From positions 210,001-242,000 of the forward strand of contig JBDSDX010000001.1 in NCBI GenBank assembly GCA_039920285.1: DNA of 32,000 nucleotides, read 5' to 3'. The translations under genes were made by a program, and so were the position numbers. The notes under the pieces were generated by a model. It did not search any database. It saw only the letters and a list, made by a program, of their open reading frames with translations, and was not told the DNA's origin. This DNA comes from Candidatus Saccharimonadota bacterium. Lineage in GTDB: Bacteria; Patescibacteriota; Saccharimonadia; Saccharimonadales; Saccharimonadaceae. This document shows, piece by piece, positions 1-17,307 of this stretch; the first letter of the stretch is position 1; each line of letters opens with the position of its first letter.

Positions 1-2700
1 GAGGCTTGCGGTGTATATCCATGTACCGGCATTTCCTGTTGAAGGGCTTATTTTACTGTATTGAACATCACTCAGGTAATTAGCGCCGTCATAGCCACCC
101 ATTAGGTAGAGGTTATTGGCATAAGATATGGCCGTCCCGCCGCGGCGAGCTACGTCGAAACTGGTACTTGTAGTCGACCATCCCGATGTAATATTTCCGC
201 CAGAGTTGAGTTGAGGACTGACGTAGACGGTATTACACACGTTACTGCCTGTACAACCGGTACCCGTGCCTGCACCACCCATCACATAAAGACGATTGTT
301 CCAGCTCGTTGCAGCGAAGTCAGTTCGGCCAGCTGGTAGTCCATTGCTCGCTGTCCCCCATGAGGTAATATTTCCACTTGATGGAGTAGCATAGTACACT
401 TCGGCTCGTCGATCAGTTGAAGTGCTACTTTGACCACCAATGTAATAGAGTGAAGATCCTGCTGAACGTAAACTACCCCAGGCTCTGACTGCCGGTAAGG
501 CGGCAGTTGTATCCGTCCATGTACCGACGTTTCCGTTCACATCAATGGCCGCATAAGAAACCGTATTGATTGCGGTTGTACAGTCGGTTGTGCTCGTACA
601 ACCACCTGCCGCATAAAGATAGCCATTGAGGACTGCACTCGTGACACCTATTCGATTTGGAGATGTTCCGTATGTATTTGCTGATGTGCTATAACCAGCT
701 GGTGCGCCACTATCGTTGTTATAGATCTGGAAGGTCTGAATAACGTCTGTGCGTGTCGTACACCCACCTGGGCTTGCACCCACTGTACACCCACCGATAA
801 CATACGCAAATGAGTTCGAAACTGGCACACTTAGGCCCCAACGCTGGCTAATAGTTACTGAAGAGACGTGGAAGCTATCTGTGACGGTACCGAGACTTCC
901 ATCACTGACATTCACTTTAATAAACTCAATATCAGCCAGAACACCTGATGCTGCTTCGTACCCACCAACGACGTAGATATAGCCGTTATACCCAAAGGCC
1001 GCTGCACGACGCCTACCTACCGCCATAATATTTGGCGACTCAGTCCAGCCTGACGACGCGGCTATCACGACATTATTTGAATCATCGAACTTTGCGTAAC
1101 GGACGGTTTTAAGGTCTTGTTGGTTTGGCGACACTCCACCAATAAGATAAATGTATCCGGCATATACTGTCCCACTCATGATGCCAAGTCCAGATGAACT
1201 ATCTCCTGGGATGACCCCAATTTGTAATTGGCTCGTTGTCGTGCAACCAGTGAGTGTACCAGCAACTTGAATACTACATTTATAGACGTTCGCACTATAT
1301 GCAGTACACCCTGCAGATGATGAGGCTGAGCAACCCCCGAATACATAAAGGTTTCCAGGGTTAGTGCCGGCGGAAACTGGATTCGCTCGTGCATAAGCAA
1401 ATAGGTAAGAGACAGAGTTCATACCGAGCCCTGTCATTGACTGACTCGTCCAAGCGTTGATACTTCCGTCGCTATTGAGGTCTGTTCTATTTACTAGATT
1501 GGCGTTACCGGATCCTGTTAATCCACCAACCAAGTAGACACGGTTATTGAAGATGACAGGACTTGCAGCGGCTAATCCACCAGATATTGTATTGACGGTA
1601 TCTACGCACCAGGTTCCTCCTTGGTAGGCTCCGTTTGGACAGGTTGCAGGTTTACTCATTTGACCTGTCGAGGAAATAGCAACATAGGCAACGTTTCCCA
1701 TGGTGGTTGAACACAAATTATTCGTACACCCACCAACGACGTAGAGGTATCCATTACTAATAAACGAACTGTTAAGCATGTTGCCAATATTTGAAGTTCC
1801 GGGGAGGTCACATTCTGTTGGTGATCCGCCTGTACAGCTACCCACACCACTTGTGACTGATTGATCAACGGTTGATGCATCACCATCATCGTTAATCACA
1901 CCGTAATTAATACTTGCCAACATACCGGAATTACAGTCTCCTGTTGTGGTGTTCTGAGCTGAGCAACCTCCGACTTCATATACTCTATCTCGCCATGATA
2001 AAAGGGAAGACCCGGTTCTTTGATCACTGACTCCGGCCATAGTACTCCATGTATCAAGGCTTCCGTCAGCATTTATACTCGCTACTTGAGTATCAGATTT
2101 AATTGAGGTACAGTAGCCACTTCCATTCACCGCGTCACAGCCCCCAGAAATATAAAGGTAAGCACCCCATACAGTCGAGAAGTCTCCACCATTATTCATA
2201 CGACCGGTGGACATATTAGCAGCACTTACCCAAGTGTTCAGAGTTCCGTCGCTATTAATTTTGTTGTATCGAATACTAGAGAGGGGGGTGCCACCCACTG
2301 ACGAAGCGCCACCGACAACGTACAAATAATCATTATATATTTTTATACTGTGACCGTAGATATTAGTTGGGAAGGCAGTTGAGGTTGACCAGGATCCAAG
2401 TGTTCCGGTCGGGTTTATGTCAGCAATTTGGACAGTGCTCACTGGACTGCTTGTCGAGCGACCCCCCACTAAGTACATACGGTTGTTATATGCAGCCATC
2501 GCCATATCAGATCGCACATTCGAAAGGTTAGTATCTTGATACCAATATACCCAGCTGGTAGGGTTCGTATTGGTCGGGTGCCATAGCCGAGGCTCACCGT
2601 TTGCTCCAAGCTTTGCAATGTAGACTGAGTTCGTTCGGTTTCCGCTTGAATCAACACCACCAACAGCATAAAGATACCCGCTATAGGCAACAAGAGAGAA
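1..2700 (-). repeat. Array of 15 Kelch-like beta-propeller blades, period about 160-190 nt
   Basis: [YF]-x-Y-x-x-G-G blade signatures were read on the minus strand at about 95, 280, 445, 615, 800, 975, 1150, 1340, 1535, 1740, 1975, 2145, 2310, 2480 and 2665. Examples are NNLYLMGG, NRLYVMGG, GYLYAAGG, GYIYVVGG, GYLYVVGGC, RVYEVGGC, AYLYISGGC and NRMYLVGG. Many blades carry a GGC-x(4-10)-C loop, for example GGCDAVNGSGYC and GGCSAQNTTTGDC. A sixteenth blade (GGYIYSVGG, about 3745-3770) lies upstream of the Gly-rich domain. Confidence 0.75.
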
Positions 2701-4791
2701 ACTTGAACGAGCGGACGGGAGGTCATAGGCACTGTTTGTACACCAACCACTACAGGTTCCGTTACCTGGGTTAGCGCTATCGATGGTTCCTGTTGTGGTA
2801 TTAAATTGAGCCCAGTTAACCGATGGTGATGTGACAGAGCCAGCACCATAGGTTATGAGTGCTAATCCACCAGCTCCCGTCGAACCACTATTGAGTTGAG
2901 GGCCTCCAGCACCACCGTCGCCCGCTCCGTTCCGAGCAGCATCACCTGAATTTCCTGGTGTCGAACCGCTACCGGTCGTATTGGAGACACCAGTTGAACC
3001 GCTGACGGTATAGCTCGATCCACCACCTCCACCACCACCGGCTTGAACGTTGCTGCTTGTTGATCCAGCACCACCACCTCCGCCGAAGTAGCCTGCACCA
3101 CCTCCACCACCACCGGCACGGGTTGTGTTAACGTTTGGGCTTCCGCCGTTTCCACCACTTGCGAGGCCACCACTTGCACCGGAGCCGTTCACTCCATTTG
3201 AACTACGGCCATCGGCTCCGTCACCACCCGCCAGTGAGCTACCTGCACTACCGTTATTATTACCACCGGTTCCTCCAGAGCCACCGCTTGATGAAGTACC
3301 GCCGCCACCTCCGCTGGCTCCTGCTGAGCTTCCGGCAACACCACTTGTTCCTCCACCGGCTCCTCCGTTAGGACCGTTAAGAGCGTTACGGGCACCACCG
3401 CCACCACCGCCTGCAGCCGCGAGAGCGAGTGCTGTTGAGCCGCGATAAATACTACTAAAGCCACCACCACCGCCACCACCGCCTGCGTCGTTTCCACCTG
3501 CGTTATAACCACCACCACCGCCACCACCACCGACGTAAACATTGAGAGTTTCACCAGGAGTGACACTAATCGTCGATTGAGTAAAGCCACCACCGCCACC
3601 GCCACCACCAGCAGCTCCAGTTCGGGCACCACCACCACCACCACCACCGCCACCCCAAAGCTTGATGGTCATCGAAGTGACACCGGTTGGAACGACAAAA
3701 CTGCTACTCCCTTGGTTATTGAAAATTTGCCCTTGATATGAGACGCCACCGACAGAATAAATGTATCCACCCGCAACCGCCGCTGCGCTCGTCCAAACTG
3801 GGGCTGGCAACGCAGTTGTTGTGGTCCAGTTATCGAAACGGGCGCCCGTTGTTCGGCCTTTTTCAATCAGTTGTTGATCAACGTTAAAGTCGACGTTTGT
3901 TTCATTATTTCCAGCCATAAATTGTCGAGCGGTTGCCACGAAGATCGTTGGGTCAATCGTAAGTGGGTAGGTTGCGTTTGAAAGTCCGTTGACAACGACG
4001 TTTAATTTCGTGCCGTCCAATACGTAATGGGCAGTCACATTTGTTTTGAGCTTGTCACGTTCAATGACGGTTGGTTTAGGAATCAAAAACAAGAGCGTTG
4101 TTTTGTCAGCATTTTTTCGAGCAGCTTCAAGAAGTTTTGCGTCAGCATCCGTTGCAGTTGTCACTTGTCCGCTAAGTAGGGTATTTCCGTACACACCAAT
4201 ACTGCCATCAGTTTCCATTCTTGCGATGAGTCCGTTACCGAGAGAAAGGTCGTACGAGAGTGTCGTGGTATCGGTACTTGAAGAGGTGAGAATAACGTCT
4301 TCTTTAATTCCGCTCGTCTCAGCGGTATAAACAGACCAGCCTCGGCCATTCGTCATCGGATACACGACACGGTTACCATCTTTCTTCCCAGCTTCATGTT
4401 TATCGAGAGGCGTCATACCGAAGTCGACGTTATTGGTGGAATCAACAACGGTGATACCTTTTGAAATATCTTGATTGAGAGTTGCTTTGATGCCATTAGT
4501 GGCAGTGACATTCGCTGATTCGCCCGTTGCTGCGGCTGATGTCGAGAAGTTGAAAATACCTTTGGTACTATCGAGGTTAAGTTTCGAAGCTAAAGCGCTA
4601 TTTTTTTTAGTCAATAAATCCTCAGCACCACCAAGAGCATACGTTTTAGTGTCGAGGAATGGCTGGAGTACGATACCCAGATCTGAGACAACGATAGCGA
4701 GGGCAACGAGGACTAAGCGGACACGAACTGACGGTACCCTTTTGAATAGGCGTCGTAGTCGAGTGGGTATCGTGGTAAAAAATTTCTTCAT
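1..4791 (-). CDS. Giant secreted/cell-surface protein, N-terminal >=1597 codons; the 3' end lies beyond the window start. Contains a signal/anchor, a beta-rich N-terminal region, a glycine-rich domain and >=16 Kelch-like propeller blades.
   Basis: It is absent from the ORF track because it has no stop inside the window. I hand-translated the minus frame whose codons start at coordinates divisible by 3. The ATG at 4791 lies 1 nt after the TAA (4793-4795) of the upstream gene and gives MKKFFTTIPTRLRRLFKRVPSVRVRLVLVALAIVVSDLGIVLQPFLDTKTYALGGAEDLL... Spot translations at about 15 places stayed open down to position 1 (...ANNLYLMGGYDGANYLSDVQYSKISPSTGNAGTWIYTASL). All small ORFs listed in 1-4790 are in other frames. 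Confidence 0.85.
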   Translation of the reverse strand, partial: MKKFFTTIPTRLRRLFKRVPSVRVRLVLVALAIVVSDLGIVLQPFLDTKTYALGGAEDLLTKKNSALASKLNLDSTKGIFNFSTSAAATGESANVTATNGIKATLNQDISKGITVVDSTNNVDFGMTPLDKHEAGKKDGNRVVYPMTNGRGWSVYTAETSGIKEDVILTSSSTDTTTLSYDLSLGNGLIARMETDGSIGVYGNTLLSGQVTTATDADAKLLEAARKNADKTTLLFLIPKPTVIERDKLKTNVTAHYVLDGTKLNVVVNGLSNATYPLTIDPTIFVATARQFMAGNNETNVDFNVDQQLIEKGRTTGARFDNWTTTTALPAPVWTSAAAVAGGYIYSVGGVSYQGQIFNNQGSSSFVVPTGVTSMTIKLWGGGGGGGGGARTGAAGGGGGGGGFTQSTISVTPGETLNVYVGGGGGGGGYNAGGNDAGGGGGGGGFSSIYRGSTALALAAAGGGGGGARNALNGPNGGAGGGTSGVAGSSAGASGGGGGTSSSGGSGGTGGNNNGSAGSSLAGGDGADGRSSNGVNGSGASGGLASGGNGGSPNVNTTRAGGGGGGAGYFGGGGGAGSTSSNVQAGGGGGGGSSYTVSGSTGVSNTTGSGSTPGNSGDAARNGAGDGGAGGPQLNSGSTGAGGLALITYGAGSVTSPSVNWAQFNTTTGTIDSANPGNGTCSGWCTNSAYDLPSARSSFSLVAYSGYLYAVGGVDSSGNRTNSVYIAKLGANGEPRLWHPTNTNPTSWVYWYQDTNLSNVRSDMAMAAYNNRMYLVGGRSTSSPVSTVQIADINPTGTLGSWSTSTAFPTNIYGHSIKIYNDYLYVVGGASSVGGTPLSSIRYNKINSDGTLNTWVSAANMSTGRMNNGGDFSTVWGAYLYISGGCDAVNGSGYCTSIKSDTQVASINADGSLDTWSTMAGVSDQRTGSSLLSWRDRVYEVGGCSAQNTTTGDCNSGMLASINYGVINDDGDASTVDQSVTSGVGSCTGGSPTECDLPGTSNIGNMLNSSFISNGYLYVVGGCTNNLCSTTMGNVAYVAISSTGQMSKPATCPNGAYQGGTWCVDTVNTISGGLAAASPVIFNNRVYLVGGLTGSGNANLVNRTDLNSDGSINAWTSQSMTGLGMNSVSYLFAYARANPVSAGTNPGNLYVFGGCSASSSAGCTAYSANVYKCSIQVAGTLTGCTTTSQLQIGVIPGDSSSGLGIMSGTVYAGYIYLIGGVSPNQQDLKTVRYAKFDDSNNVVIAASSGWTESPNIMAVGRRRAAAFGYNGYIYVVGGYEAASGVLADIEFIKVNVSDGSLGTVTDSFHVSSVTISQRWGLSVPVSNSFAYVIGGCTVGASPGGCTTRTDVIQTFQIYNNDSGAPAGYSTSANTYGTSPNRIGVTSAVLNGYLYAAGGCTSTTDCTTAINTVSYAAIDVNGNVGTWTDTTAALPAVRAWGSLRSAGSSLYYIGGQSSTSTDRRAEVYYATPSSGNITSWGTASNGLPAGRTDFAATSWNNRLYVMGGAGTGTGCTGSNVCNTVYVSPQLNSGGNITSGWSTTSTSFDVARRGGTAISYANNLYLMGGYDGANYLSDVQYSKISPSTGNAGTWIYTASL
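2845..3699 (-). repeat. Glycine-rich domain coding region with (GGT/GGC)n tracts inside the giant gene
   Basis: Translation gives FVVPTGVTSMTIKLWGGGGGGGGARTGAAGGGGGGGGFTQSTISVTPGETLNVYVGGGGGGGGYNAGGNDAGG ... TGAGGLALITYG. On the plus strand this appears as runs of ccacc, including a perfect (ACC)7 at 3628-3648. The pattern (beta strand, WGGGGG, GGGGG, PGETLxVxVGGGG) matches the widespread 'glycine-rich domain' of large bacterial and phage surface proteins; I recognised this from memory. Confidence 0.8.
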
Positions 4792-4792
4792 A

Positions 4793-7700
4793 TTACCTGT
4801 TAGAGAAGGTGAAGTTTAAGTTTCCAATATAAGCGTTCGCATTTGAACTCGCTGTTGCATTGACCTTAAAGACAATACTATTGCCAGGCAAGAATCCACA
4901 CGTTGACGGATCGGCTGCACCGTTCGCTGTCCCAATCTGCCATGATGAGACACTTCCGGTTGATACAGCAACTGCTGGCCCACAAGCAGTGAGCCCGGTT
5001 GTAGCATCGTTTCGATAGACTTGATACTGCACCGTAGAGTTGATGCTATCGGTCCGTCCTCTAATTGAAGTTTGACCTGAAGCAAAGCTCTTGAATGATC
5101 CCGGAAGTTGGTAGGTAACATAAATGCTATAGGTCTGTGCCGTTGGTTGCGGAGATGTCCATTTATAGAAGTTATAGGTCTCGTTGGAACCGCAAATGGT
5201 TGGTTGACCTGAGGTACCGTCGTTGATGTCGAGCGTATCAGAACAGATGTCAGAGATCATTGTTCCGATACCAGTTCCATGGAGTACAGCGTTAGTATAT
5301 TCAGGTGAGATTGTAATGATATTATCTGGAGAAGAACCGCAAGCACCCCAGCCATCAGCCTCGTAACACTGCAGTTTTCCGAGTGTCGTGTCGTAGTACA
5401 TCGAACCGAGTAGTGCGTCGTTGTCACTTGCGATTGGTGCCGATGCTCCTTTATCGAGTGTCAGTAGTGTCGTTGGTCCACCATTAGCACCACCACCAAT
5501 TTGAACATTTGGTGCTGTATTTGAAGAGAGTGTCATTGAGAATTGGTCGACGGAGAAGGTGCGAGCAGCAGATGCTGTTTCGACAAAGTAGACGTACGGA
5601 TTTGTTGGGGTTGTTCCATCAGTTTTGATATAACAGGTGATCTGCGTCCAACCCGAAGTCGTTACTACTTGTGTATTGTAATCAACACAATCAACATAAT
5701 TACCACCGGCACTCGTGCTTCCATCTCTAGAGTAACGAACCTTAAAGTCATTGAATGTGCCGGTTGATAACTTAGCGTAAACAGAGACACGGTAGAGTGT
5801 GCTCACAATTGGATTGATGGCTAGCTTGTTGCGCACACCAGCATTCGCTGCACCAGTTGTGACGACAGCTTGCGCGCTGTCACTCGCTTCTGATCCATCA
5901 GTGCTATTTCGTGTCACTCCGACAGTCCCGAGACCGGCCGTCACCCAGTTTGTTGCGAAGTTTCCGGCATCATTAACACCACCATCATTTGCATAGTTGA
6001 AGTCGGCTGCAATTGTGACGCTTAAGTTGTCGACATAGAAGGTACGCGCGACGCCTGATGTTTGACGAATTAATATAGCATTATTTGACGTGATACCGGA
6101 TGCAGGTGCAGCAAATGTACAGTTTACCTTTGTCCAAATACTTGTCGTAGCTGTTTTCCCTGTCGCACATAGCACAGATGCTGTTGTTCCATCGACAGAG
6201 TAATAGACGTTCATATCAGTAAACGTTCCACTCAGGAGTCGAGTTGTGAACGATACGTTGTAATTCATATTCGTGTTCAAAGTTGTACTTAGTGTGTCTT
6301 TGACACCAGCATTTGCAGTAGCCGCAGTAGCGGTTGATACAGAAGCTTGACCAGTTGCAATGAAATCACCAGCTGTTGAGTATCTCGAAACGGTCGATGC
6401 GGATGAGCTTGACCAGGTGCTTGCAGGGAACGTTGTGACTCCACCAGACCCAATTGTTTCGGCACCTGCGTTGGTAGCGTATTCAGTCACGTTACTATTC
6501 ACAGAGAAGAGCCCAGCAGCTGAGGCAGTTTGCACACTAAGTAGTGTACCGTTGACCGGACTAGTGGAACTATCACGGATCGTGAGTCCGTTAGTTGTAG
6601 AGGTCTTGCTGACGATCAACTCAGCACCACCAGCAGATTGCAGAGTATTGTCGTAGGCAGATTGCAGAGTTGTTGAACTCGAAGCACCGGCAGCAGTCCA
6701 GTCAGCACCATTCCAGATCATGGTTGCTGTGGTGTTTTGACGCATGGCGATTGTATTTCCTGTCCCACCACCGTTGACGATGAGTGTAAAGTCATTTGAA
6801 CCGTTAGCTGCAGTAATGTAGACAACACGGCCAGCCGTCAGAATTGTTGGGTCAGGCAATGTGGCGCTCAAACCGCCATTGTTAAAACCGGCAAGGATAG
6901 CCGACGAGTTATTAACTGATGCTGCTGTGATCGTACAGCTTGCCCCAACTAATGCACCACCGGTATAACAGTTGGCGTCATTTGCGGTCGTTGAGAAGGT
7001 CGGGGTAGTGAAGACAACGAGGCCACCCGCGCCACTTCCAACACCCGTACCACCAGTAAGTGTGATATTACCACCGTTAGCATTACCAACAGTGGCGTTA
7101 CCACCTTGAATAGTAAGTGCACCACCAGTCACCGCTGTTGTCGAACTCCCCGTACCACTGACGGTGAATGCACTTGGTGCGCCCGCAGTCACACCATTTC
7201 CTAAGTAGAGTGCACCAGTCGTGTCGCTGAATGTTCCTCGAACAACACCGTTGGTGCTAATTGTGACGCCATTCTTTGCTTGGATTGCGGTAATGCCCGC
7301 AGTTGCGCTAGCACCTGAGCCAATCGTAATATTTGTGGTAGATCCAACAGTGTTGTTATTTCCGATGGCAAGCGTTTGTGTACCAGTCGCTAGCGTGGCG
7401 CTACCAATTTGAATAGTTGAAGCGCGACTTGTTCCGATTTGAATAGCACCATCTGCTCCTGATCCCGTTTTTGCACCAGCATCAATCGCAACGTTCCCAC
7501 CTGCAGCGTTTGTTCCACCAGCTGTACCCCCTTGGAGAACAAGGTTTCCACCGACAGAACCTGTTCCTGATCCACCTGTTCCGCCGGTGACAGATAAGTT
7601 TCGACCAGCCGTTGAGGCGGCTGATACCGCCAGTCCAATTGAGTGATTAGCGTTAGATCCGAACGTAATATCGCCAGTGTTGGTGAGAGTGAAAACATCA

Positions 7701-8353
7701 ACAGCAGCTGATTGTAGTTGCATGAAGTTGCCACCAGCACCGGTTTTGTTTAGGAAGACGCTACTCGTGCTCGTTGATGCATCAGTCTGGACACCTTGTG
7801 CGAGTTGGACAAAGTTAGCACTTGTTAAGCCATTCAGGCGATTGCTATTCAGTGAATACGGTGTTGCGGAGAGACGTTTCATCGGGAGTAGTTCTCCGTC
7901 AGGTGTACATGAGCTAAATGGGGTACATGAGCCGTTGGTGCTGCCGATGTTCATTGAAAGCCAGAGTGTGTCTTGGTTCCAGTCAACGTTGGTGCCGAAT
8001 GGGGTGATTGATCCGAGTTGTACTGACATGAATCCGTTGATGACCTGAACACCTTGAGTGGCGGTGTTGAGATAATTCTCAGTCCATTTCAGAGTTCCGG
8101 CAGGTGATCCACTCGTGTTTCCTGCGAGCAGTCCATCACCATCTTGGTAAATTTTAAACTGAATATTGTATGTGCCGTCAGGGACGATATTGCCAGCGGC
8201 GTTATAGAGACGACCCTGGAAATTGAGTTGTTGGTTGGTACCTGCTGCGGCATGTGCCTGTGTGCTGAAAAGCATAAAAGAGAGCAAAAGAACTCCTAGC
8301 AAAAAAGCATAGGGAGCACTAGTTTTAAAAATCCTCCACACGGTTGAAACCAT
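4793..8353 (-). CDS. 1186-aa secreted fibre-like surface protein with an N-terminal fibre module, a G/T/A-rich beta-helix-like region, two tandem CBM/jelly-roll-like domains and a Cys-containing C-terminal domain
   Basis: ATG at 8353. The signal peptide is ...FMLFSTQAHAAAG. The N-terminus reads QLNFQGRLYNAAGNIVPDGTYNIQFKIYQDGDG. Repetitive segments include GGTGGSGTGSVGGNLVLQGGTAGGTNAAGGNVAIDAG. Two homologous domains of about 160 aa end in ARTFYVDNLSVT (about 6014-6496) and ARTFSVDQFSMT (about 5528-6007). The stop lies 1 nt before the start of the giant gene. Confidence 0.85.
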   Translation of the reverse strand: MVSTVWRIFKTSAPYAFLLGVLLLSFMLFSTQAHAAAGTNQQLNFQGRLYNAAGNIVPDGTYNIQFKIYQDGDGLLAGNTSGSPAGTLKWTENYLNTATQGVQVINGFMSVQLGSITPFGTNVDWNQDTLWLSMNIGSTNGSCTPFSSCTPDGELLPMKRLSATPYSLNSNRLNGLTSANFVQLAQGVQTDASTSTSSVFLNKTGAGGNFMQLQSAAVDVFTLTNTGDITFGSNANHSIGLAVSAASTAGRNLSVTGGTGGSGTGSVGGNLVLQGGTAGGTNAAGGNVAIDAGAKTGSGADGAIQIGTSRASTIQIGSATLATGTQTLAIGNNNTVGSTTNITIGSGASATAGITAIQAKNGVTISTNGVVRGTFSDTTGALYLGNGVTAGAPSAFTVSGTGSSTTAVTGGALTIQGGNATVGNANGGNITLTGGTGVGSGAGGLVVFTTPTFSTTANDANCYTGGALVGASCTITAASVNNSSAILAGFNNGGLSATLPDPTILTAGRVVYITAANGSNDFTLIVNGGGTGNTIAMRQNTTATMIWNGADWTAAGASSSTTLQSAYDNTLQSAGGAELIVSKTSTTNGLTIRDSSTSPVNGTLLSVQTASAAGLFSVNSNVTEYATNAGAETIGSGGVTTFPASTWSSSSASTVSRYSTAGDFIATGQASVSTATAATANAGVKDTLSTTLNTNMNYNVSFTTRLLSGTFTDMNVYYSVDGTTASVLCATGKTATTSIWTKVNCTFAAPASGITSNNAILIRQTSGVARTFYVDNLSVTIAADFNYANDGGVNDAGNFATNWVTAGLGTVGVTRNSTDGSEASDSAQAVVTTGAANAGVRNKLAINPIVSTLYRVSVYAKLSTGTFNDFKVRYSRDGSTSAGGNYVDCVDYNTQVVTTSGWTQITCYIKTDGTTPTNPYVYFVETASAARTFSVDQFSMTLSSNTAPNVQIGGGANGGPTTLLTLDKGASAPIASDNDALLGSMYYDTTLGKLQCYEADGWGACGSSPDNIITISPEYTNAVLHGTGIGTMISDICSDTLDINDGTSGQPTICGSNETYNFYKWTSPQPTAQTYSIYVTYQLPGSFKSFASGQTSIRGRTDSINSTVQYQVYRNDATTGLTACGPAVAVSTGSVSSWQIGTANGAADPSTCGFLPGNSIVFKVNATASSNANAYIGNLNFTFSNR

Positions 8354-8459
8354 TTTTTCTCTTTATGTTACCTAAAGTTAGAGCTGGTGTCCTCTAGGTG
8401 TATTCTACCCGTATTAAGCATAACGTTTTTAGGGTTAATTTACAAGGAAATAACCCCTG

Positions 8460-9422
8460 TTATTTTGAGATTTGTTGACCCTGATATTGCACAGCCAAAA
8501 CGCGCTTTTCGCGCACTTCACCAAACCAGAAGCTAAGTACGATCGCAACGATACTCACATACAATGGCCAGAGTGTCAAAATACTTGTCGCAAGATCTGA
8601 TTTGCCACCGTTAGTAGCTGAACCTACCACTTCAGGTTGACCATTAATGATAGCTGCAACAGACAAGAAGGCCACACGACCTTCGGCATCGGTTACCTGG
8701 GTACTCATTTGGTAGGTACCTGGTTTTTGGAAGACGTGAGCGGTAGAGAATGATGTGTTGTTGTTGCGTGAAACGACGTTATTTTGTCCATCACCCCACT
8801 GAATATTAAAGGCAAATGGCGCGACACCACCGAGGAGTGTCAGCGGCATTGCCAATTCCTGTCCTGGGAATGATCCACGGAAGACCGCATCGGTACTTAA
8901 GAGGATTTGTGGGCCACCAAAGTTAATTGGAGTGATGCCACTCGATTGAGTGGGCAGTAGGTCGTAAAAGACGGTTACCTTGTTCGAATCTGGTCCGGCT
9001 TGATTGAGTGCATCATACACTCTGGCTATCAATACGTTTTGGCCGATCAGAAGATCTACTTGCATCTCGTACTCTCCGGTATTGGAACAGATAGTCGAAC
9101 CGGCAAATATGTCATTCTTAAAGATTTCAATTAATGAATCATTGACACATTTACCCGATACGGTAATTGGTGATGTTGAGAAACGTTTCTGTTCGGAGGG
9201 CTGTTCGATCGTTGGTGCGACCGTCGGGGGCTTACCAGGAACAACACCAGTGAGCGAGATAGATCGTGACTCAGGACCTGGACTGAGGGCGAATGCGGTG
9301 TACGCAGAAAGGGGAATGCCCGCTAAGAGCAGTAGAATAACCAGAGGAAGATACGAGGTATAGGTGTGCGGTCGTAGCTTGCCAGAGTGGTGATGCTTAA
9401 TTAATTTTACCCCGTGTAGCAT
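8460..9422 (-). CDS. 320-aa membrane protein with a His-rich N-terminal motif plus TM, an Ig-like domain, a PKD-like domain and a C-terminal TM
   Basis: ATG at 9422. The N-terminus is MLHGVKLIKHHHSGKLRPHTYTSYLPLVILLLLAGIPL. The PKD-like signature is FNIQWGDGQNNVVSRNNNTSFSTAHVFQKPGTYQMSTQVTDAEG. The C-terminal hydrophobic helix is ILTLWPLYVSIVAIVLSFWF. Confidence 0.8.
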   Translation of the reverse strand: MLHGVKLIKHHHSGKLRPHTYTSYLPLVILLLLAGIPLSAYTAFALSPGPESRSISLTGVVPGKPPTVAPTIEQPSEQKRFSTSPITVSGKCVNDSLIEIFKNDIFAGSTICSNTGEYEMQVDLLIGQNVLIARVYDALNQAGPDSNKVTVFYDLLPTQSSGITPINFGGPQILLSTDAVFRGSFPGQELAMPLTLLGGVAPFAFNIQWGDGQNNVVSRNNNTSFSTAHVFQKPGTYQMSTQVTDAEGRVAFLSVAAIINGQPEVVGSATNGGKSDLATSILTLWPLYVSIVAIVLSFWFGEVREKRVLAVQYQGQQISK

Positions 9423-9429
9423 AGGCTAT

Positions 9430-9438
9430 ATTATAGCA
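9430..9438 (-). promoter_or_regulatory. Extended -10 TGCTATAAT lying 7 nt from the ATG of the 320-aa gene (leaderless configuration)
   Basis: The minus strand reads catgcTATAATatagcctATG, with the ATG at 9422. Confidence 0.5.
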
Positions 9439-9464
9439 TGAACACGATGGATAACAGAGGCAGA

Positions 9465-10493
9465 CTACTTACGACGGCGACGAGTTGTCTTTGACTTGTT
9501 CTGCTGCTTCGTTGAAGAACCAGTTGCTCGGCTGACGATAAGGCGGTTGTAACGGCGGATCAGATAACGGAAGAGGAAGAAGGCCATGACAAGGACGATG
9601 ATAGCCACTCCGATGAGTGTATAAGGAATAACCCAGAATGAAATAGTCTGTTTTATTTCCTTGGCGTCAGAACCATAGCTCATTGTGAATTCAGCGTTAT
9701 ATTTACCGAAAAGTATCTTGTCTCCAATAACTGATGTATCAAGTTTTTCTTCAAATCGACGTGTACTATCTGAAAGAATCAAACGCTTCGCTTCATTGAC
9801 GGGAAGCGTGGCTACTGTTTTGCCGAACATGTCAGTAATCGTGACGAGTCCGACTGGTTGTTCAAAAGTGTTGCCAGTATTCTTTATTCTCTGAACAACA
9901 GTAATAGGTGCTCCCTGGACGATTGATGAGGCTTTACCGCCGCTATTAACAGAGAATTCTTCAATAGATAATTGTTCTTTTGCTTGTCCGTTTACCTTAA
10001 GGAAGATGAGAGAGCCAAGACTTGCATTGAGAGACACCCCTGAACCCTTTAGTTCTGGCGGCACTCCACTAAAACGGACAATACCATAATAACCACCAGG
10101 TGAAGCGTTCTTCGGAATGTCGATAGTGACAGTTATTGTTTTGATTTGCTTTGGTTTTAATGTTGAAGATGGGACGACACGGACCCACTCTTTGAATGAA
10201 TATGGCGTTGTTGTATCATCTAGAATAACTTTAGGAGTACCGTCCTCGCCGCTCGCAATAAAGTCATTAACCTGACCAGTAACATACAAATCAGTACTTG
10301 AGACATCACGCAAGCTAAGGTTTGTGGTAATCGTTTGACCGGGGTCACCGTTAATACTGACAACTGGAGGCCCAATTTCAAGCGCTTGACCACCACCAGT
10401 CGCTGTTTGTGCTTGGACAGCAGAAGTGCTAAGTAGTGCGAAAGTGGCAACAAATACTGCGATGAGTGTGAATAATTTCTTTCGCCCTGTCAT
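9465..10493 (-). CDS. 342-aa cell-surface protein, DUF916/DUF3324-like (CscA / WxL-interacting-protein-like), with a signal peptide, two beta-sandwich halves, a C-terminal TM anchor and a basic tail
   Basis: The signal peptide is ...LLSTSAVQAQT. Motifs include KPKQIKTITVTIDIPKNASPGGYYGIVRF and QRIKNTGNTFEQPVGLVTITDMFGKTV...GKYNAEFTMSYG. The TM helix is VIPYTLIGVAIIVLVMAFFLF, followed by ...KSKTTRRRRK. The start lies 2 nt after the upstream stop (TAGATATG). The family assignment rests on architecture and motif resemblance only. Confidence 0.75.
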   Translation of the reverse strand: MTGRKKLFTLIAVFVATFALLSTSAVQAQTATGGGQALEIGPPVVSINGDPGQTITTNLSLRDVSSTDLYVTGQVNDFIASGEDGTPKVILDDTTTPYSFKEWVRVVPSSTLKPKQIKTITVTIDIPKNASPGGYYGIVRFSGVPPELKGSGVSLNASLGSLIFLKVNGQAKEQLSIEEFSVNSGGKASSIVQGAPITVVQRIKNTGNTFEQPVGLVTITDMFGKTVATLPVNEAKRLILSDSTRRFEEKLDTSVIGDKILFGKYNAEFTMSYGSDAKEIKQTISFWVIPYTLIGVAIIVLVMAFFLFRYLIRRYNRLIVSRATGSSTKQQNKSKTTRRRRK

Positions 10494-10495
10494 AT

Positions 10496-11599
10496 CTAGA
10501 AGGTTGCCGTACAGATGTAAGTCAGTGTCGCTGTGTACGTACCAGATGCTTGGTTACCAGCTACGTTCACGATGTATGATGAGGTAAAAATCTGTGCGTT
10601 AGTTGGCCCAGCACCACCGTTGGCGCTATTAGCAACTGAGTCACCGGTCACAAACTTGAATTGATCGACCGTGTTATATCCAGTTGCTGCTTGACCTTTC
10701 AGGTTGACACCATCCGGTGCAGTAGCAACTTCAAGTCCAACAGCAACTGTAGAGGTTGCCGTTGTGTTGAGCTTTAAGTTAGTACCAAATTGTCCAGTAC
10801 CTCTTACGCCGACTCCTGTTACGGCCATCGCAGGGATAGTGTTGGAACCAGAGGTAAGGGTCGCTCCGTTTACTGTAATGCTATAGCCTGATGCCGCATT
10901 TGTGGAAGCAGCCATCTGTGATTGAGCAGTTGCAGTATCGGTTGGAGAGAACAATTGGTTGAAGGTAATCGCGCCCGACGTTGCAGTCGTACAGTCTGGA
11001 ATCGAAGCAGTCAAGCTAATTGCTGCACCAACACAGAAGATGAGTGACTCAGGCATAGTTCCAGTCAAGACAATCTGTTGAGCAGTACTCGCTGCGACGG
11101 TACCAGTGTCAATTGGTGAGCCAGTTGCATTCGTTGCAACGTAAGTCGTAATACGAACGAAGAAGGTAGTACCACCGGCTGCGGTTGGGTTAGTCACAGT
11201 GTTCAAAACAACCGAAATAGTACCAGCTGCTGCTGCTGTTTTTGTAATATAAGGTGCACCGTTGGTTGTATTAACAAGAGTCGCGCCAGATGCCCAACCA
11301 GTACCACCACTTACCGTGGCAGAAGTAGTCACAATTCCAGTTGGAAGGACACAAGCTGTGACGGATGCAGTAGTACAGTATTCAAACTTAATTGATCCTG
11401 TTGAAGAACCACTTGTCGTGAAGTCGAACTTATGTTTGACGACACCACCAGGTTTTGATCCACCGTCGGTGCCACCGGCTTGAAGGGTTAATGAACGTGT
11501 TGTTATCTGTGCTGCGTACGTTGTTTGTGTGTTAAATACGGATACAACTAGTGCTGTCAGCAATAAAACACTTAGAAATAACCCTTTCCTCAATCTCAT
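10496..11599 (-). CDS. 367-aa secreted T/S/A/G-rich two-domain beta protein, paralog B of a putative fibre/surface-complex subunit (WxL-like C-terminal module with Tyr in place of Trp)
   Basis: ATG at 11599. The signal peptide is ...NTQTTYA|AQITTRSLTLQAGGTDGGSKPGGVVKHKFDF. The C-terminus is ...SGTYTATLTYICTATF. It is about 60% identical by eye to the adjacent 374-aa protein. Confidence 0.85.
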   Translation of the reverse strand: MRLRKGLFLSVLLLTALVVSVFNTQTTYAAQITTRSLTLQAGGTDGGSKPGGVVKHKFDFTTSGSSTGSIKFEYCTTASVTACVLPTGIVTTSATVSGGTGWASGATLVNTTNGAPYITKTAAAAGTISVVLNTVTNPTAAGGTTFFVRITTYVATNATGSPIDTGTVAASTAQQIVLTGTMPESLIFCVGAAISLTASIPDCTTATSGAITFNQLFSPTDTATAQSQMAASTNAASGYSITVNGATLTSGSNTIPAMAVTGVGVRGTGQFGTNLKLNTTATSTVAVGLEVATAPDGVNLKGQAATGYNTVDQFKFVTGDSVANSANGGAGPTNAQIFTSSYIVNVAGNQASGTYTATLTYICTATF

Positions 11600-11605
11600 G
11601 TCGGA

Positions 11606-11635
11606 ATTGTAGCATGAGCGTTAAGAGGCCGTCAA
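11606..11635 (-). promoter_or_regulatory. Promoter TTGACG-18-(TGC)TACAAT lying 6 nt from the ATG of the 367-aa paralog (leaderless configuration)
   Basis: The minus strand reads TTGACGgcctcttaacgctcaTGCTACAATtccgacATG. There is no SD sequence. Confidence 0.5.
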
Positions 11636-11657
11636 TGAAATAATCGTAAGTGTCTTG

Positions 11658-12782
11658 CTAGAAAGTAGGTGTACAGATGTAAGTCAAAGTTGTGGTGTAG
11701 GTACCGGCAGGTTGGCTACCAGGGACATTCACAACATAGGAGACAGTGAAGATTTGGGCGTCTGATCCACCAGCACCACCGTTAGAACTATCTGCGACGA
11801 TGTCGCCTGTAGTGAACTTGAAGTTGTCAACGGTATTGTATCCGGTCGTCGCTTGCCCTCGATAGTTTGTTCCGTTTGAGGCAGTAGCAACTTCAAGGCC
11901 AAATCCAGTCAATTGTGTTGCGGTGGTGAGTGTATTCGCTTTTAAGTTCATACCGAATTGGCTCACACCACGAGCTGTCACAGCCGCTGCTGACATCTGC
12001 GAGACGGTATTCGAGCCTGAAGTTAGTGTTGGGCCGTTCACGCTGATCGCGTACCCTCCACCAGCATTAGTTGAGGCAGCAAGTTGGGATTGAGCAGTGG
12101 AAGTATCGACAGGTGAGAAAAGTTGGTCGAAGTCAACGAGGCCGGTTGTTACCGTACTACAGTCGGGAACTAAGGCGGTCAAGCCAATGGCTTTACCAGC
12201 ACAGAAGACAAGTGATTCGGGCATAGTACCGCTAAGGATAATTTGAGTTGCGGTTGCGGCAGTGACGTTTCCTGTATCAATTGCAGTACCGGTAGTATTT
12301 GATGCGGTATAGGTTGAGATACGAACGAAGAACGTGTAGTTTGTCGCGGTTGGGTTGGTAACTGAACCAAGTGTGTAAGACAAGGCAAGTGGGCCTGCGA
12401 TTGATGCGGCAGTACGAGTAAGGTAGGGCGCGCCGTTAGTCGTGTTCACCATTGTGAAGCCAGTTGCGTTGTTCTGCGCATCGAGTGTTGCAGACGTTGT
12501 CACGAGTCCAGTAGGAGTTGTACAAGTACCTGCAGCGAGAGTACAGTATTCGAATTTAATTGAACCGACTGATGCATTTGTCGGGACTGTAAAGTCGTAC
12601 TTATGCTTGACGACACCACCTGGTTTTGAACCACCATCGGTCGCACCGGCCTGAAGAGTTAGACTACGAGTTGTAATCTGTGCAGCAAATGCACTTGAGG
12701 GCAGTAATACTTGCGATATGAAGCTGGCCAAAACGACTACTCCAACTAAGAGGGGTGCAAAGGAGCGTTTTTGTATTATCAT
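11658..12782 (-). CDS. 374-aa secreted T/S/A/G-rich two-domain beta protein, paralog A and the candidate major subunit
   Basis: The ORF track extends to 12839, but the internal ATG at 12782 gives a normal signal peptide: MIIQKRSFAPLLVGVVVLASFISQVLLPSSAFA|AQITTRSLTLQAGATDGGSKPGGVVKHKYDF. A TTGACA-17-TATTCT promoter (12824-12852) lies inside the longer ORF. The C-terminus is ...AGTYTTTLTYICTPTF. Confidence 0.85.
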   Translation of the reverse strand: MIIQKRSFAPLLVGVVVLASFISQVLLPSSAFAAQITTRSLTLQAGATDGGSKPGGVVKHKYDFTVPTNASVGSIKFEYCTLAAGTCTTPTGLVTTSATLDAQNNATGFTMVNTTNGAPYLTRTAASIAGPLALSYTLGSVTNPTATNYTFFVRISTYTASNTTGTAIDTGNVTAATATQIILSGTMPESLVFCAGKAIGLTALVPDCSTVTTGLVDFDQLFSPVDTSTAQSQLAASTNAGGGYAISVNGPTLTSGSNTVSQMSAAAVTARGVSQFGMNLKANTLTTATQLTGFGLEVATASNGTNYRGQATTGYNTVDNFKFTTGDIVADSSNGGAGGSDAQIFTVSYVVNVPGSQPAGTYTTTLTYICTPTF

Positions 12783-12823
12783 TTTTTTGATCTCTTTTTG
12801 TTTTATGGTGGTTGTTTGACCTG

Positions 12824-12852
12824 AGAATAGCATTAGCATGATACTCTGTCAA
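12824..12852 (-). promoter_or_regulatory. Near-consensus promoter TTGACA-17-TATTCT for the 374-aa paralog
   Basis: On the minus strand the -35 box TTGACA is at 12852..12847, the spacer is 17 nt, and the -10 box TATTCT is at 12829..12824. The leader of about 35 nt contains AAAGAGA before the ATG at 12782. A weak hairpin plus T7 run (tcgttgaaaacga tgtattttttt) lies just upstream. Confidence 0.55.
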
Positions 12853-12900
12853 TAAAAAAATACATCGTTTTCAACGAGAAGTGTAAAACTGGGGATAACT

Positions 12901-13638
12901 CTAGTATGTGCCAGTAACGATGAGTGTCTGATTGCTACTATATTGACCTCCCGGTGTCAGTGCGGCGACATTGACGAGGTAGGTAATAGTGTAATCAGTA
13001 ATACCGGAGCTTTTTGACGCAAGTGCGATCGTTTCACCAGGGACGTAACGGAAAGAGTTAGGTGTCGAGTAATTTGGTGCTGCCCCGCCGAAACCGTACT
13101 GATAATTATTCGGGTTTGCTCCAACTGAACTAGGTGAGGTGTTTGCCACAAGGTTTATACCAAATTGTTCCACGCCAATAGTTGAAGCAGTGTTTGAGGA
13201 TAATGACGGGAGTACTTTTGCGTTATTGGTCGGTGCTGTGCCGGCAATCTGAACGACGTATCCGTAGCTGGTGTAGTTAAGAACCGAGAAGGTAGCAATG
13301 GCAACAGAGGAGGTCAAAGGACTAAATGCTGGAAATGAGATAGCGCCAGAGGTAATGCTGACAGCGAGATTTGGGTCACTCGGTGTTTTTTGACCAGAGT
13401 TTACTTGAAAGCTACCAGAGTTAGAATTACCAACTGAGATATCACCGATGATATCGGTAGCTTTAAAATTTGCCGAGCTGGATTGAACATTGCTTCCCGA
13501 GCCAACGCTACTTTCACTCAGACGGAAGTTAGTTGATTTTGGGTCGGCTGCGAAGGCCACGCTTGAAGTAGTGACAACACCAAGCAGTGTCACAACAAGG
13601 ACAACAATTCCCAACATACCCCTTCGCATATCTTTCAT
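12901..13638 (-). CDS. 245-aa secreted protein sharing the C-terminal module of the 367/374-aa paralogs (candidate minor subunit)
   Basis: ATG at 13638. The signal peptide is ...TTSSVAFA|ADPKSTNFRLSESSVGSGS. The shared module runs ISFPAFSPLTS...GYVVQI...GVEQFGINLVANT...YSTPNSFRYVPGE...YLVNVAALTPGGQYSSNQTLIVTGTY. Confidence 0.8.
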   Translation of the reverse strand: MKDMRRGMLGIVVLVVTLLGVVTTSSVAFAADPKSTNFRLSESSVGSGSNVQSSSANFKATDIIGDISVGNSNSGSFQVNSGQKTPSDPNLAVSITSGAISFPAFSPLTSSVAIATFSVLNYTSYGYVVQIAGTAPTNNAKVLPSLSSNTASTIGVEQFGINLVANTSPSSVGANPNNYQYGFGGAAPNYSTPNSFRYVPGETIALASKSSGITDYTITYLVNVAALTPGGQYSSNQTLIVTGTY

Positions 13639-13741
13639 TGTTGAGGATATTGGTTAATTTTGCAACTGTAGGCGCAAGCGGTTTGCGGACCGAGGCAAAA
13701 AAAGCTATACTGAGGCCACATTACCTCACATATAAACACGC

Positions 13742-14782
13742 ATGGCAAATACCCCTGAAAAATCATCAAAGTCTGACGAGCTTCCTGCACCTGAAGTGCT
13801 GACTGTTCAGAGTGATGATGGCTCACAAGCGCCAAAAGTGGCTTCGTCAGTCCTCTCACAACGAGCGAAAGGTATGCGTCGACGGGTGACCTATCGTCCA
13901 AGCCATAAAGCGACCTTTATTGGACTTGCTGTGGTTATCGCAGTACTTTTGATTAACGGAGGTGTTATTGCTTTCGTATTGGGGGGCAAAGATCCTTCAG
14001 GTGGTACAACTAATGCAAATGCAGTCACCTTAAGTTCAGGAGTTCTTAATTCATTGGGCGTCAGTCGTAATCCTGTCGGCGAAACGAGTGAAGAGCTTTC
14101 GATCGGTCCAAACACGAAGTTTGGCGGCACGATCTTGGTCAATGGCAACACGAGTATTGGCGGGGAACTAACGCTTAACAAAAAGTTATCTGCCCAAGAT
14201 GCAACAGTAACCACATTACAAGCGGGAAATACGTCACTTCAAACCTTAGTTGTGAACGGTGACCTAACCGCAACAAATATTAATGCTCGTACTGACCTTT
14301 CAGTTGTCGGAGCGACTCGCCTTCAAGGTGCAGTTACAATTGGTCAACTTTTGACGGTTAATAATAGTGTGAGCGTTATCGGAAACTTAGCAGTTGGCGG
14401 TACATTGACTGCTCGTTCATTCCAAGCTAATAATCTTATCTCTGAAAACACACTCACGATCGGTGGACACATTATTACTGCTGGTTCAGCTCCTGCAGTT
14501 GCGAGAGGTTCAGCAACTGGTTCAAACGGCTCGGTTTCGATTAGTGGTAATGATACATCAGGAACTGTCGCTATCAACGCGGGAACGGGCGCTGGAGGCG
14601 GTATGGTCGCTCAAGTCGCCTTTAAGACATCATTCCCAACTATTCCCCACGTCGTCGTTACTCCAGTTGGTGGACCGATCGGGAGCTTCTATATCACTCG
14701 CTCTGCCGGTGGTTTCAGCATATTCGTGACTGGCGCACTTTCACCTGGTGGGTACGCCTTTGACTACATTGTTGTGCAATAG
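13742..14782 (+). CDS. 346-aa type-II membrane protein with a cytoplasmic N-terminus, one TM, an extracellular beta-helix-like repeat stalk and a C-terminal beta-sandwich (lectin/tail-fibre-tip-like) domain
   Basis: ATG at 13742. The TM helix is FIGLAVVIAVLLINGGVIAFVLGG. Degenerate repeats of about 14-15 aa read LVNGNTSIGGELTL / LVVNGDLTATNINA / LSVVGATRLQGAVTIGQLLTV / VSVIGNLAVGGTLTA. The C-terminus is VAFKTSFPTIPHVVVTPVGG..FYITRSAGGFSIFV...GGYAFDYIVVQ. Confidence 0.75.
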   Translation: MANTPEKSSKSDELPAPEVLTVQSDDGSQAPKVASSVLSQRAKGMRRRVTYRPSHKATFIGLAVVIAVLLINGGVIAFVLGGKDPSGGTTNANAVTLSSGVLNSLGVSRNPVGETSEELSIGPNTKFGGTILVNGNTSIGGELTLNKKLSAQDATVTTLQAGNTSLQTLVVNGDLTATNINARTDLSVVGATRLQGAVTIGQLLTVNNSVSVIGNLAVGGTLTARSFQANNLISENTLTIGGHIITAGSAPAVARGSATGSNGSVSISGNDTSGTVAINAGTGAGGGMVAQVAFKTSFPTIPHVVVTPVGGPIGSFYITRSAGGFSIFVTGALSPGGYAFDYIVVQ

Positions 14783-15049: not shown

Positions 15050-17282
<2,233 letters not shown>

Positions 17283-17307
17283 CTGTAGAGCTTCTTGTTG
17301 AATCGCA

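Follow-up and report, generated by a model that had tools for sequence, protein, structure and literature searches.

A probable Pam pilus operon of one-chaperone, two-pilin form in a Saccharimonadales bacterium, followed by genes for two giant surface proteins

INTRODUCTION

Cultivated bacteria belonging to the candidate phyla radiation (CPR) live in attachment to bacterial hosts; little is known of how they locate these hosts and keep hold of them. Here we ask what is encoded by a block of surface-protein genes in a Candidatus Saccharimonadota bacterium (assembly GCA_039920285.1, contig JBDSDX010000001.1, positions 210,001 to 242,000 of the forward strand), a stretch of 32,000 nt that we refer to as the window. 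The block occupies positions 1-14782 and lies mostly on the minus strand, and an earlier reading of the letters alone (the original prediction) likened it to a base-shaft-adhesin arrangement and saw in it, for an epibiotic or host-dependent small-genome bacterium, a strong candidate for host attachment or recognition; the small genome agrees with the source, which belongs to the Saccharimonadales. We conclude, with a probability of about 0.82, that the segment 8460-13638 is a Pam pilus operon, encoding a pilus of CPR bacteria that is built without an usher, by donor-strand exchange. Systems of this kind are known already, through a 2026 preprint and release 20 of NCBIfam, and the locus is a further member; its form, with one chaperone and two pilins, is common in Saccharimonadia.

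Troman et al. (bioRxiv 10.64898/2026.03.03.709456) described the Pam pilus, which is assembled by donor-strand exchange, from Ca. Mycosynbacter amalyticus. Cryo-electron microscopy (cryo-EM) showed that PamA and PamB form long helical filaments, in which the inter-domain linker strand of each subunit is donated into the truncated immunoglobulin (Ig)-like C-domain of its neighbour. The genes of M. amalyticus follow the order PamT-PamA-PamE-PamD-PamR-PamB-PamC, and Troman et al. propose that PamT is the tip, that the chaperones are PapD-like and membrane anchored, and that PamR is terminator and anchor; the sizes are 25.6 kDa for PamT, 38.6 kDa for PamE, 37.4 kDa for PamD, and 32.8 kDa for PamR. 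PamA, PamB, and PamD are abundant (ranks 2, 9, and 30), while PamR, PamE, and PamT are rare (ranks 631, 651, and 768). The published neighbours include genes for ATP synthase, a major facilitator superfamily (MFS) transporter, and CorB, and one conserved neighbour is termed 'tail fibre-like' (bioRxiv 10.64898/2026.03.03.709456).

RESULTS

Pilus subunits and the donor strand

The assignment to the Pam system follows from the scores against the PamT and PamR equivalog models, the pilin C-domains, the gene order, and the distribution of the donor motif. Against the NCBIfam models NF058579 (CPR_pilus_PamT, equivalog), NF058581 (CPR_Pam_pilin_C), and NF058578 (CPR_pilus_PamR, equivalog), the 245-aa protein scored 264.5 bits with the first (cut-off, 240) and 138 bits with the second, the 374-aa pilin 1 scored 135 bits with the second (cut-off, 55; residues 212-374), the 367-aa pilin 2, which is 63% identical to pilin 1, scored 133.7 bits with the same model, and the 320-aa protein scored 326.8 bits with the third (cut-off, 300). 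Pilin 1 has 2610 homologues, and its gene is present in two to three copies at some loci; it holds the operon position of PamA but has the size of PamB or PamE. The gene for pilin 2 adjoins the chaperone gene, lying 2 nt upstream of it, in the position of PamE.

The subunits are predicted to differ in what they can give and what they can accept. Behind its signal peptide, PamT carries at residues 96-245 a Pam pilin C-domain, which matches the C-domain hidden Markov model (HMM) from position 31 onward and aligns to the C-domain of pilin 1 only from pilin residue 210 on (29% identity, E 5e-14); the donor motif was not found in PamT by motif search, and in the alignment the linker with its donor strand is missing. 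In the pilins, on the other hand, the linker is the most conserved stretch (GTMPESLVFCxG), with G185, M187, P188, E189, L191, F193, C194, and G196 (pilin 1 numbering) invariant in 65 pilins. The motif [ILV]x[LV]xG[TV][MV]P occurs within the window only in the linkers of both pilins and at the N-terminus of mature PamR, where its consensus over 71 orthologues is SIGLTGTMPGKPP. PamR has, in addition, an N-terminal hydrophobic segment, Ig/FnIII-type domains, and a C-terminal transmembrane (TM) segment at residues 277-303, and would be an RbmA-like terminator and membrane anchor. One acceptor-only protein (PamT), two proteins that are both donor and acceptor (the pilins), and one donor-only protein with an anchor (PamR) make up the set that a tip-shaft-anchor fibre requires. 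In the AlphaFold2 model of pilin 1, the N-domain (residues 37-178) is a confident beta-sandwich, and its fold matches in the PDB are the fimbrial subunits PsaA, AAF, and MyfA and the pilin EbpB (E ~1e-4 for PsaA, AAF, and EbpB).

The pilin family also has an odd number of invariant cysteines, namely five (C80, C87, C194, C208, and C370), the last of which stands four residues before the end of the protein; there are none in PamT or the chaperone. An inter-subunit disulfide is conceivable.

Chaperone and its homology to WxLIP

The 342-aa protein carries a signal peptide and was modelled by AlphaFold2 with a predicted local distance difference test (pLDDT) score of 83 as two beta-sandwich Ig-like domains and a TM helix (residues 291-324). 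Its top Foldseek matches were WxLIP of Enterococcus faecium (9i25_C and 9i1y, E 5e-12), then RbmA, and next the chaperones of chaperone-usher systems, namely CfaA, YadV, DraB, Caf1M, and FimC (E 3e-9 to 1e-7), with TM-scores to the latter group of 0.5-0.58 when normalised to the target. No NCBIfam model matched the protein. The Pfam model WxLIP_PGBD (PF06030) was reached by 24/79 family members, with a best E value of 1.7e-5 and all scores below the gathering score, and among the Pfam matches listed for the family there was none to DUF3324. In a profile-profile comparison, hhalign of the chaperone family against four DUF916 proteins from plasmid records gave a probability of 98.6% (E 1.2e-15) over 247 columns, covering both domains and the TM helix. 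A tblastn search of plasmids with the chaperone returned 12 records, four of them annotated as DUF916, and in the loci of Paenibacillus urinalis and Rossellomorea a gene for a WxL domain-containing protein adjoins the DUF916 gene. By these comparisons the 342-aa protein is a PamC/PamD-like chaperone, homologous to the WxLIP/DUF916 proteins of the WxL clusters of Firmicutes. Such clusters comprise one WxLIP, a small protein consisting of a WxL domain only, and larger proteins with N-terminal binding domains, and predictions have WxLIP itself, made up of DUF916, DUF3324, and a TM segment, inserting a beta-hairpin into the partner protein (Hassan et al. 2023, PMC10599100). The text of the Troman et al. 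preprint contains no mention of WxL.

We claim homology for the chaperone only, since the likeness between the pilin C-domain and WxL is not significant. That the C-domain might be a WxL domain was prompted by the resemblance of GxGYAISV to GAGWAYSV and by a shared C-terminal AGTYxxxxT[YF], and found no support: when the Pam C-domain was compared by hhalign with an alignment of five WxL sequences, E was 0.3 and only the last 12 residues aligned, the match being restricted to the shared C-terminal AGTYxxxxT[YF] strand, Pfam WxL matched 0/65 pilins even at E up to 1, and no sequence match was found in the PDB.

Two plasmid-borne clusters were seen alongside. On a P. urinalis plasmid (L083, positions 5764-10597; also L085), a DUF916 protein and a small WxL protein are accompanied by a 1048-aa RCC1 beta-propeller protein that ends in a WxL domain; such a large propeller protein, encoded behind a WxLIP-type chaperone, is a parallel to the Kelch giant of the window. 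The Deinococcus psychrotolerans plasmid NZ_CP034185.1 (L084, positions 6859-12605) encodes hypothetical proteins of 291, 281, 175, and 1058 aa, the second of which is related to the Pam/WxLIP chaperone (with the HMM of the Pam chaperone, 40 bits; tblastn E 4e-4), and in the 291-aa protein ...ATLTYTLES... stands some 20 residues from the C-terminal end. Outside the CPR and Firmicutes, too, there may be a system of this sort.

Conservation of gene order

A scan of one genome per species yielded 80 related loci (L001-L080), all from metagenome-assembled genomes (MAGs), whose titles are mostly Saccharibacteria or Saccharimonadales and otherwise Patescibacteria group or unnamed bacterium. With the Saccharimonadales source, this agrees with the restriction of the Pam system to CPR genomes (Saccharimonadia and Microgenomatia). 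All loci with enough DNA share one order: AtpA-AtpG-AtpD, the 346-aa gene on the opposite strand, PamT, two to four pilins, the chaperone, PamR, and a large protein. The recurrence of this order means that the block is not a chance arrangement. Median identity to the window is 50-62% for the pilus proteins and 80% for AtpD, and the intergenic gaps are short. The 346-aa gene was found in the same place and orientation in 69 loci, with a median identity of 50% over its full length.

Giant proteins and their distal modules

The first giant (1186 aa; its family is called G1186 below) has a cleavable-looking signal peptide and appears to be secreted, of modular build, and tail-fibre-like. Apart from a weak, sub-threshold CBM_4_9 hit (E 0.0035), it matched nothing in Pfam, the PDB, or PHROGs, and PDB sequence searches with both giants gave nothing useful. 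Its family comprises 2280 representative clusters, with listed lengths of 401-4611 aa. At 61/61 loci with at least 1.5 kb beyond PamR, a member of this family follows PamR directly. The N-terminal domain is constant, being matched in 59-66 of the 67 loci that gave a match and, under a criterion of at least 100 residues, in 64/66 loci even where the remainder is unrelated; the C-terminal ~740 residues, which include two segments resembling carbohydrate-binding modules (CBM), were found in ~38 loci.

The second giant, given as at least 1597 aa in the original prediction, has a full length of 1850 aa in the source genome (P0241, ABIP50_01075), and ~759 nt of its gene, and hence of the cluster, lie beyond the left end of the window. 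It carries Kelch repeats (PF24681, 104 bits, and PF01344) and a glycine-rich domain for which PF21722 scored 24.0 bits against a cut-off of 24.3 (E 4.5e-5); precomputed PF21722 matches exist in many orthologues. As its orthologues (1710-2209 aa) are 48-78% identical, this giant is about as conserved as the pilus proteins, and not hypervariable. In the glycine-rich stretch, where 7-9 Gly follow one another in runs, the local GC rises to 0.57 with a strongly negative GC skew; the short repeats at 3464-3654 (ACC/CCA and CCACCACCG) could be liable to slippage.

The C-module of the first giant and the Kelch giant are inherited together: they co-occur in 32/32 versus 1/11 loci (Fisher p = 6e-9), and the lone exception is a fragmented gene. 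Other loci have distal modules with Reelin subrepeats or a right-handed beta-helix, often in a protein of ~1360 aa. On a neighbour-joining tree of chaperone and PamR, which carries no support values, these class B loci are scattered among those of class A (L006, for example, is sister to L009), which points to repeated replacement of the distal cassette, and the constant N-domain after PamR is kept in 10/10 of them. The question posed with the original prediction, whether the block is syntenic or hypervariable, therefore has a split answer: the pilus core and the N-domain of the first giant are strictly syntenic, and the C-module and the Kelch giant have been repeatedly replaced. Receptor-binding proteins follow the same logic, a constant N-domain joined to distal modules that can be exchanged, which supports a putative role in target recognition.

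Neither giant has a Pam N- or C-domain (HMM searches), the donor motif, or, by hhalign of the C-termini against the WxL domain and the Pam C-domain, a C-terminus of either kind; their candidacy as pilus subunits or as large proteins of the WxL type was rejected on these three negatives.

At L077 (MAG CAWBLS010000002.1), the G1186-like gene is split into open reading frames (ORFs) of 660, 139, 207, and 125 aa next to an intact Kelch giant of 1355 aa, which reflects either a decaying cassette or an assembly error. The context downstream of the 1850-aa gene was taken from a relative, L081, whose Kelch giant is 75% identical; there a 208-aa gene without a Pfam match (15582-16208, plus strand) follows after 28 nt on the same strand, and the genes beyond it are oriented the other way. 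This gene, for which the corresponding stretch falls outside the window, may close the cluster.

Promoters and transcription units

At 6-7 nt upstream of the start codon, 36/49 pilin-2-type, 34/76 PamR, and 26/102 pilin-1-type genes carry an extended -10 element (TGnTAnnnT), and it is present within 120 nt upstream of PamR in 67/76 orthologues. Within the same distance the controls gave 4/79 for the chaperone, 5/69 for G1186-like genes, 5/63 for AtpD, and 0/60 for AtpG, and the region before the 346-aa gene was likewise at background. In the window the elements read TGCTACAAT before pilin 2 and TGCTATAAT before PamR. From their placement, the pilins and PamR seem to be transcribed separately, on mRNAs that are probably leaderless, and such differential promoters would fit the uneven abundance of the Pam proteins in M. 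amalyticus. The spacer between PamR and the first giant (106 nt in the window) contains no terminator-like site. From these signals, the likely transcription units are (i) pilin 1, (ii) pilin 2 with the chaperone, and (iii) PamR with the 1186-aa and 1850-aa genes, and we infer co-transcription of the giants with PamR.

Layout and neighbourhood of the locus

The eight ORFs were found where the original prediction had placed them (Table 1), and its junctions of 2, 1, and 42-118 nt match the measured minus-strand spacings of 118, 58, 2, 42, 106, and 1 nt, in order; PamT and the 346-aa gene are separated by a divergent gap of 103 nt. For pilin 1, the mechanical ORF has 393 aa, starting at 12839, and the NCBI call ABIP50_01100 has 374 aa. 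Much of what had been said of the products was upheld as well. (i) All eight carry a signal peptide or TM anchor, with N-terminal hydrophobic segments throughout, a C-terminal one too in the 342- and 320-aa proteins, and in the 346-aa protein an internal segment at residues 53-84; (ii) none belongs to an enzymatic family in Pfam, NCBIfam, or PHROGs; (iii) the small, fibre-like subunits of 245, 374, and 367 aa contain Pam_pilin_C; (iv) the mid-sized proteins, described as membrane anchored and Ig-like, conform to the chaperone model and the PamR family match; and (v) the large proteins are modular, of propeller and binding type. The block as a whole is a cluster dedicated to the cell surface. 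Of the labels 'Ig/PKD' and 'CBM-like/Kelch', the Ig-like and Kelch (PF24681) parts stand, and the PKD and CBM_4_9 matches are sub-threshold.

The 346-aa protein has a repeat-rich, predicted extracellular part beyond its TM segment and is a conserved neighbour for which no family match (Pfam, NCBIfam, and PHROGs) or PDB match was obtained; within the window, it shows no similarity to the 1186-aa protein. Genes for ATP synthase epsilon, beta, gamma, alpha, and delta follow at 14783-19273, and an MFS transporter, a DsbA-like protein, and a CBS-domain CorB-like protein are also encoded near the block, in agreement with the published neighbourhood. The epsilon gene (14783-15049, minus strand, 88 aa) ends directly against the stop of the convergent 346-aa gene, so that neither strand has a spacer in which a terminator could lie. 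No hits came from Rfam and tRNA scans of the window. At 26637-27278 (minus strand) and 28474-29274 (plus strand), less than 2 kb apart, lie two genes for HhH-GPD base-excision glycosylases, with genes for a metallo-beta-lactamase-fold protein and a methionine sulfoxide reductase between them; together they form a small repair and oxidative-damage cluster unrelated to the Pam locus.

Table 1. Predicted genes, domains, and motifs of the locus, with positions in the window
Feature	Position	Strand	Basis
PamT, 245 aa	12901..13638	-	ORF
Pam pilin 1, 374 aa	11658..12782	-	NCBI gene call ABIP50_01100
Pam pilin 2, 367 aa	10496..11599	-	ORF
Chaperone, 342 aa	9465..10493	-	ORF
PamR, 320 aa	8460..9422	-	ORF
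First giant (G1186), 1186 aa	4793..8353	-	ORF
Second giant (Kelch), 1597 of 1850 aa inside the window	1..4791	-	ORF, translation
Divergent membrane protein (BH346), 346 aa	13742..14782	+	ORF
Donor (linker) strand motif IILSGTMP, pilin 1 residues 181-188	12219..12242	-	motif search
Donor (linker) strand motif IVLTGTMP, pilin 2 residues 176-183	11051..11074	-	motif search
Donor-strand-like motif ISLTGVVP, PamR residues 55-62 (mature N-terminus)	9237..9260	-	motif search
G1186 constant N-terminal domain, residues 31-250	7604..8263	-	family comparison
G1186 variable C-module, residues 448-1186, with two CBM-like segments	4796..7012	-	family comparison
1850-aa protein: N-terminal TM anchor (residues 18-47), further domain, glycine-rich domain, several Kelch propeller regions	1..4791	-	
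Glycine-rich domain, residues 360-576 of the 1850-aa protein	3064..3714	-	Pfam Gly_rich_2 PF21722
Extended -10 element TGCTACAAT, 6 nt upstream of pilin 2 start	11606..11614	-	family-wide search
Extended -10 element TGCTATAAT, 7 nt upstream of PamR start	9430..9438	-	family-wide search
Extended -10 element near pilin 1	about 12824-12852	-	family-wide search

DISCUSSION

The assignments above can be combined into a model of assembly, the order of which we take from the one published for M. amalyticus. All products would be exported by the Sec pathway, and in every subunit the C-terminal Ig-like domain, being incomplete, would be capped by the two-Ig chaperone. PamT would start the fibre at the distal tip, because it has the acceptor domain and lacks the donor strand; the two pilins would build the shaft, each inserting its linker strand (I-x-L-x-G-T-M-P) into the C-domain of the preceding subunit; and PamR would stop growth and tie the fibre to the membrane, because it combines a donor motif at its mature N-terminus with a C-terminal TM helix. 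The giants would not be part of the filament but accessory surface proteins: the first, secreted and tail-fibre-like, would join a constant N-domain to exchangeable distal modules, and the second would be a membrane-anchored glycine-rich/Kelch-propeller protein inherited with one particular distal module; co-transcribed with PamR, they would, at a guess, supply or support target binding at the cell surface. This is where the filament order of the original prediction gives way, as the 245-aa protein appears to be the tip and not the base, the 342-aa protein a chaperone and not shaft, and the 320-aa protein the anchor, while the giants, which had been assigned to the adhesin end, have neither a pilin domain nor a donor-strand motif. 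By analogy with M. amalyticus, a role of the pilus in host attachment is plausible. The giants may take part in host attachment and may be linked physically to the pilus, and we consider their functional cooperation with the pilus an even bet.

Several observations weigh against the Pam pilus reading, or at least against its wider reach: (i) the likeness to M. amalyticus is one of family models, gene order, and sizes, PamA and PamB being absent from the PDB copies searched; (ii) the window has one chaperone and two pilins of ~38 kDa, against two chaperones and three pilins in M. amalyticus; (iii) the C-domain of pilin 1 failed to fold in AlphaFold2 (pLDDT <35), so that the acceptor groove is predicted only; (iv) generic promoter and terminator scans of the region returned no more sites than expected by chance; (v) the giants are devoid of Pam domains, the donor motif, and a WxL-like C-terminus; and (vi) Saccharimonadia are broadly syntenic, with the ATP synthase operon always adjacent. 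Since even that operon is a constant neighbour, being adjacent is not in itself a sign of the giants acting together with the pilus.

The last two points lead to the strongest alternative, in which the giants are independent surface proteins (such as envelope or S-layer associated ones, or general glycan binders) that stand next to the pilus through conserved gene order, the supposed supercluster being two or three unrelated units. The ATP synthase operon, the MFS transporter, and the CBS-domain protein are just as constant in their place although no mechanistic connection is evident, the size of the G1186 family suggests further copies elsewhere in the genomes, and PamR and the first giant are set further apart than the other genes (median spacer near 130 nt). 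The giants are, however, on the same strand in every locus, their junction is 1 nt long, the spacer before them in the window is free of terminator-like sites, and the extended -10 element conserved before PamR and the pilins is missing before G1186-like genes; moreover, when the distal cassette is swapped, the constant N-domain stays behind PamR. We therefore regard this alternative as a real possibility, with the odds somewhat against it. A phage origin of the block, as a prophage-derived or tailocin-like tail-fibre module, might be read from the constant and variable parts of the first giant and from the term 'tail fibre-like' used by Troman et al., but the three large or repeat-rich proteins have no PHROG match, on which ground we rejected it, the window holds no phage structural, integrase, or lysis genes, and the same chromosomal site is occupied in 80 species, which makes such an origin extremely improbable.

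The homology of the chaperone to WxLIP, its top structural match, allows a further reading, in which the cluster acts like the WxL (Csc) complex of Firmicutes, with a WxLIP-type protein holding a small and a large partner at the wall by strand insertion in short complexes and not polymers. WxL clusters likewise pair a two-Ig-plus-TM protein with domain-only small proteins and larger ones, including the RCC1 propeller protein of Paenibacillus, and Pam pilins share the C-terminal AGTYxxxxT[YF] with Paenibacillus WxL proteins. Against this, homologous pilins were seen by cryo-EM as long helical filaments in M. amalyticus, the pilins of the window hold both a donor strand and an acceptor domain, permitting polymerisation, and neither the profile comparison nor Pfam relates them to WxL; we consider this reading improbable, and retain that of a polymeric Pam pilus. 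A broader proposition would make Pam pili and WxL/Csc clusters, with the similar Deinococcus plasmid clusters, branches of one ancient usher-less strand-complementation system around a membrane-anchored WxLIP-type chaperone, coupled transcriptionally in Saccharimonadia, through PamR, to a tail-fibre-like protein whose cassette-swapped distal module and Kelch partner retarget the cell to other hosts. It is doubtful as a whole, and we put it forward as a speculation.

The locus presents a minimal Pam pilus, made with a single chaperone and two pilins, whose chromosomal site is the same across at least 80 species of Saccharimonadia. The homology to WxLIP and the co-varying cassette after PamR are two leads that go beyond the text of the preprint, in which the words 'Kelch', 'adhesin', and 'propeller' do not occur and the giants are not discussed. 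The former ties the pilus of an uncultivated phylum to a widespread, poorly understood surface system of lactobacilli, enterococci, and Listeria, and suggests that insight into mechanism may pass both ways; the latter makes the gene after the anchor, with its constant domain, exchangeable module, and co-inherited Kelch giant, the obvious place in which to seek host-range determinants.

To conclude, the system can be set against those already known. From sortase-assembled pili of Gram-positive bacteria it differs in that no sortase family was found in the window and in that the pilins end in ...TYICTPTF and ...TYICTATF, without an LPXTG-plus-TM tail. With phage tail fibres and receptor-binding proteins, the first giant shares a constant N-domain and patchily swapped distal modules (CBM-like, Reelin-subrepeat, and right-handed beta-helix), while it is unrelated to any PHROG family and lies in a chromosomal, non-mobile locus without phage genes. 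The WxL/Csc clusters resemble it in that the 342-aa protein has a predicted architecture like that of WxLIP and that both pair such a protein with small domain-only and larger multi-domain proteins; the Pam partners, on the other hand, have no detectable WxL domain, possess a donor strand, and polymerise in the one relative so far characterised. Chaperone-usher pili (Pap/Fim, CFA/I, Caf1, and Csu) have in common with its predicted assembly incomplete Ig-like subunits, a two-domain chaperone, donor-strand complementation, and tip-first assembly, a likeness at the level of fold only, as PDB sequence searches gave no match. They donate an N-terminal extension, whereas Pam donates the internal linker of two-domain subunits, and in the window system the chaperone is membrane anchored, there is no outer membrane, and no usher family was found among the eight proteins or their neighbours (Pfam, NCBIfam, and neighbourhood annotation). 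The closest counterpart is the Pam locus of M. amalyticus, from which the window departs in having no subunit of the 55-kDa size of PamA and in having the 1186-aa and 1850-aa proteins, in place of PamB and PamC, after PamR. It shares with that locus the order of the first five genes (tip, pilin, pilin, chaperone, and anchor), the sizes of PamT, PamE, PamD, and PamR, the PamT and PamR equivalogs, Pam_pilin_C in the subunits, the C-terminal TM helix of the chaperone, the conserved linker strand, and the ATP synthase, MFS, and CBS/CorB-type neighbours.

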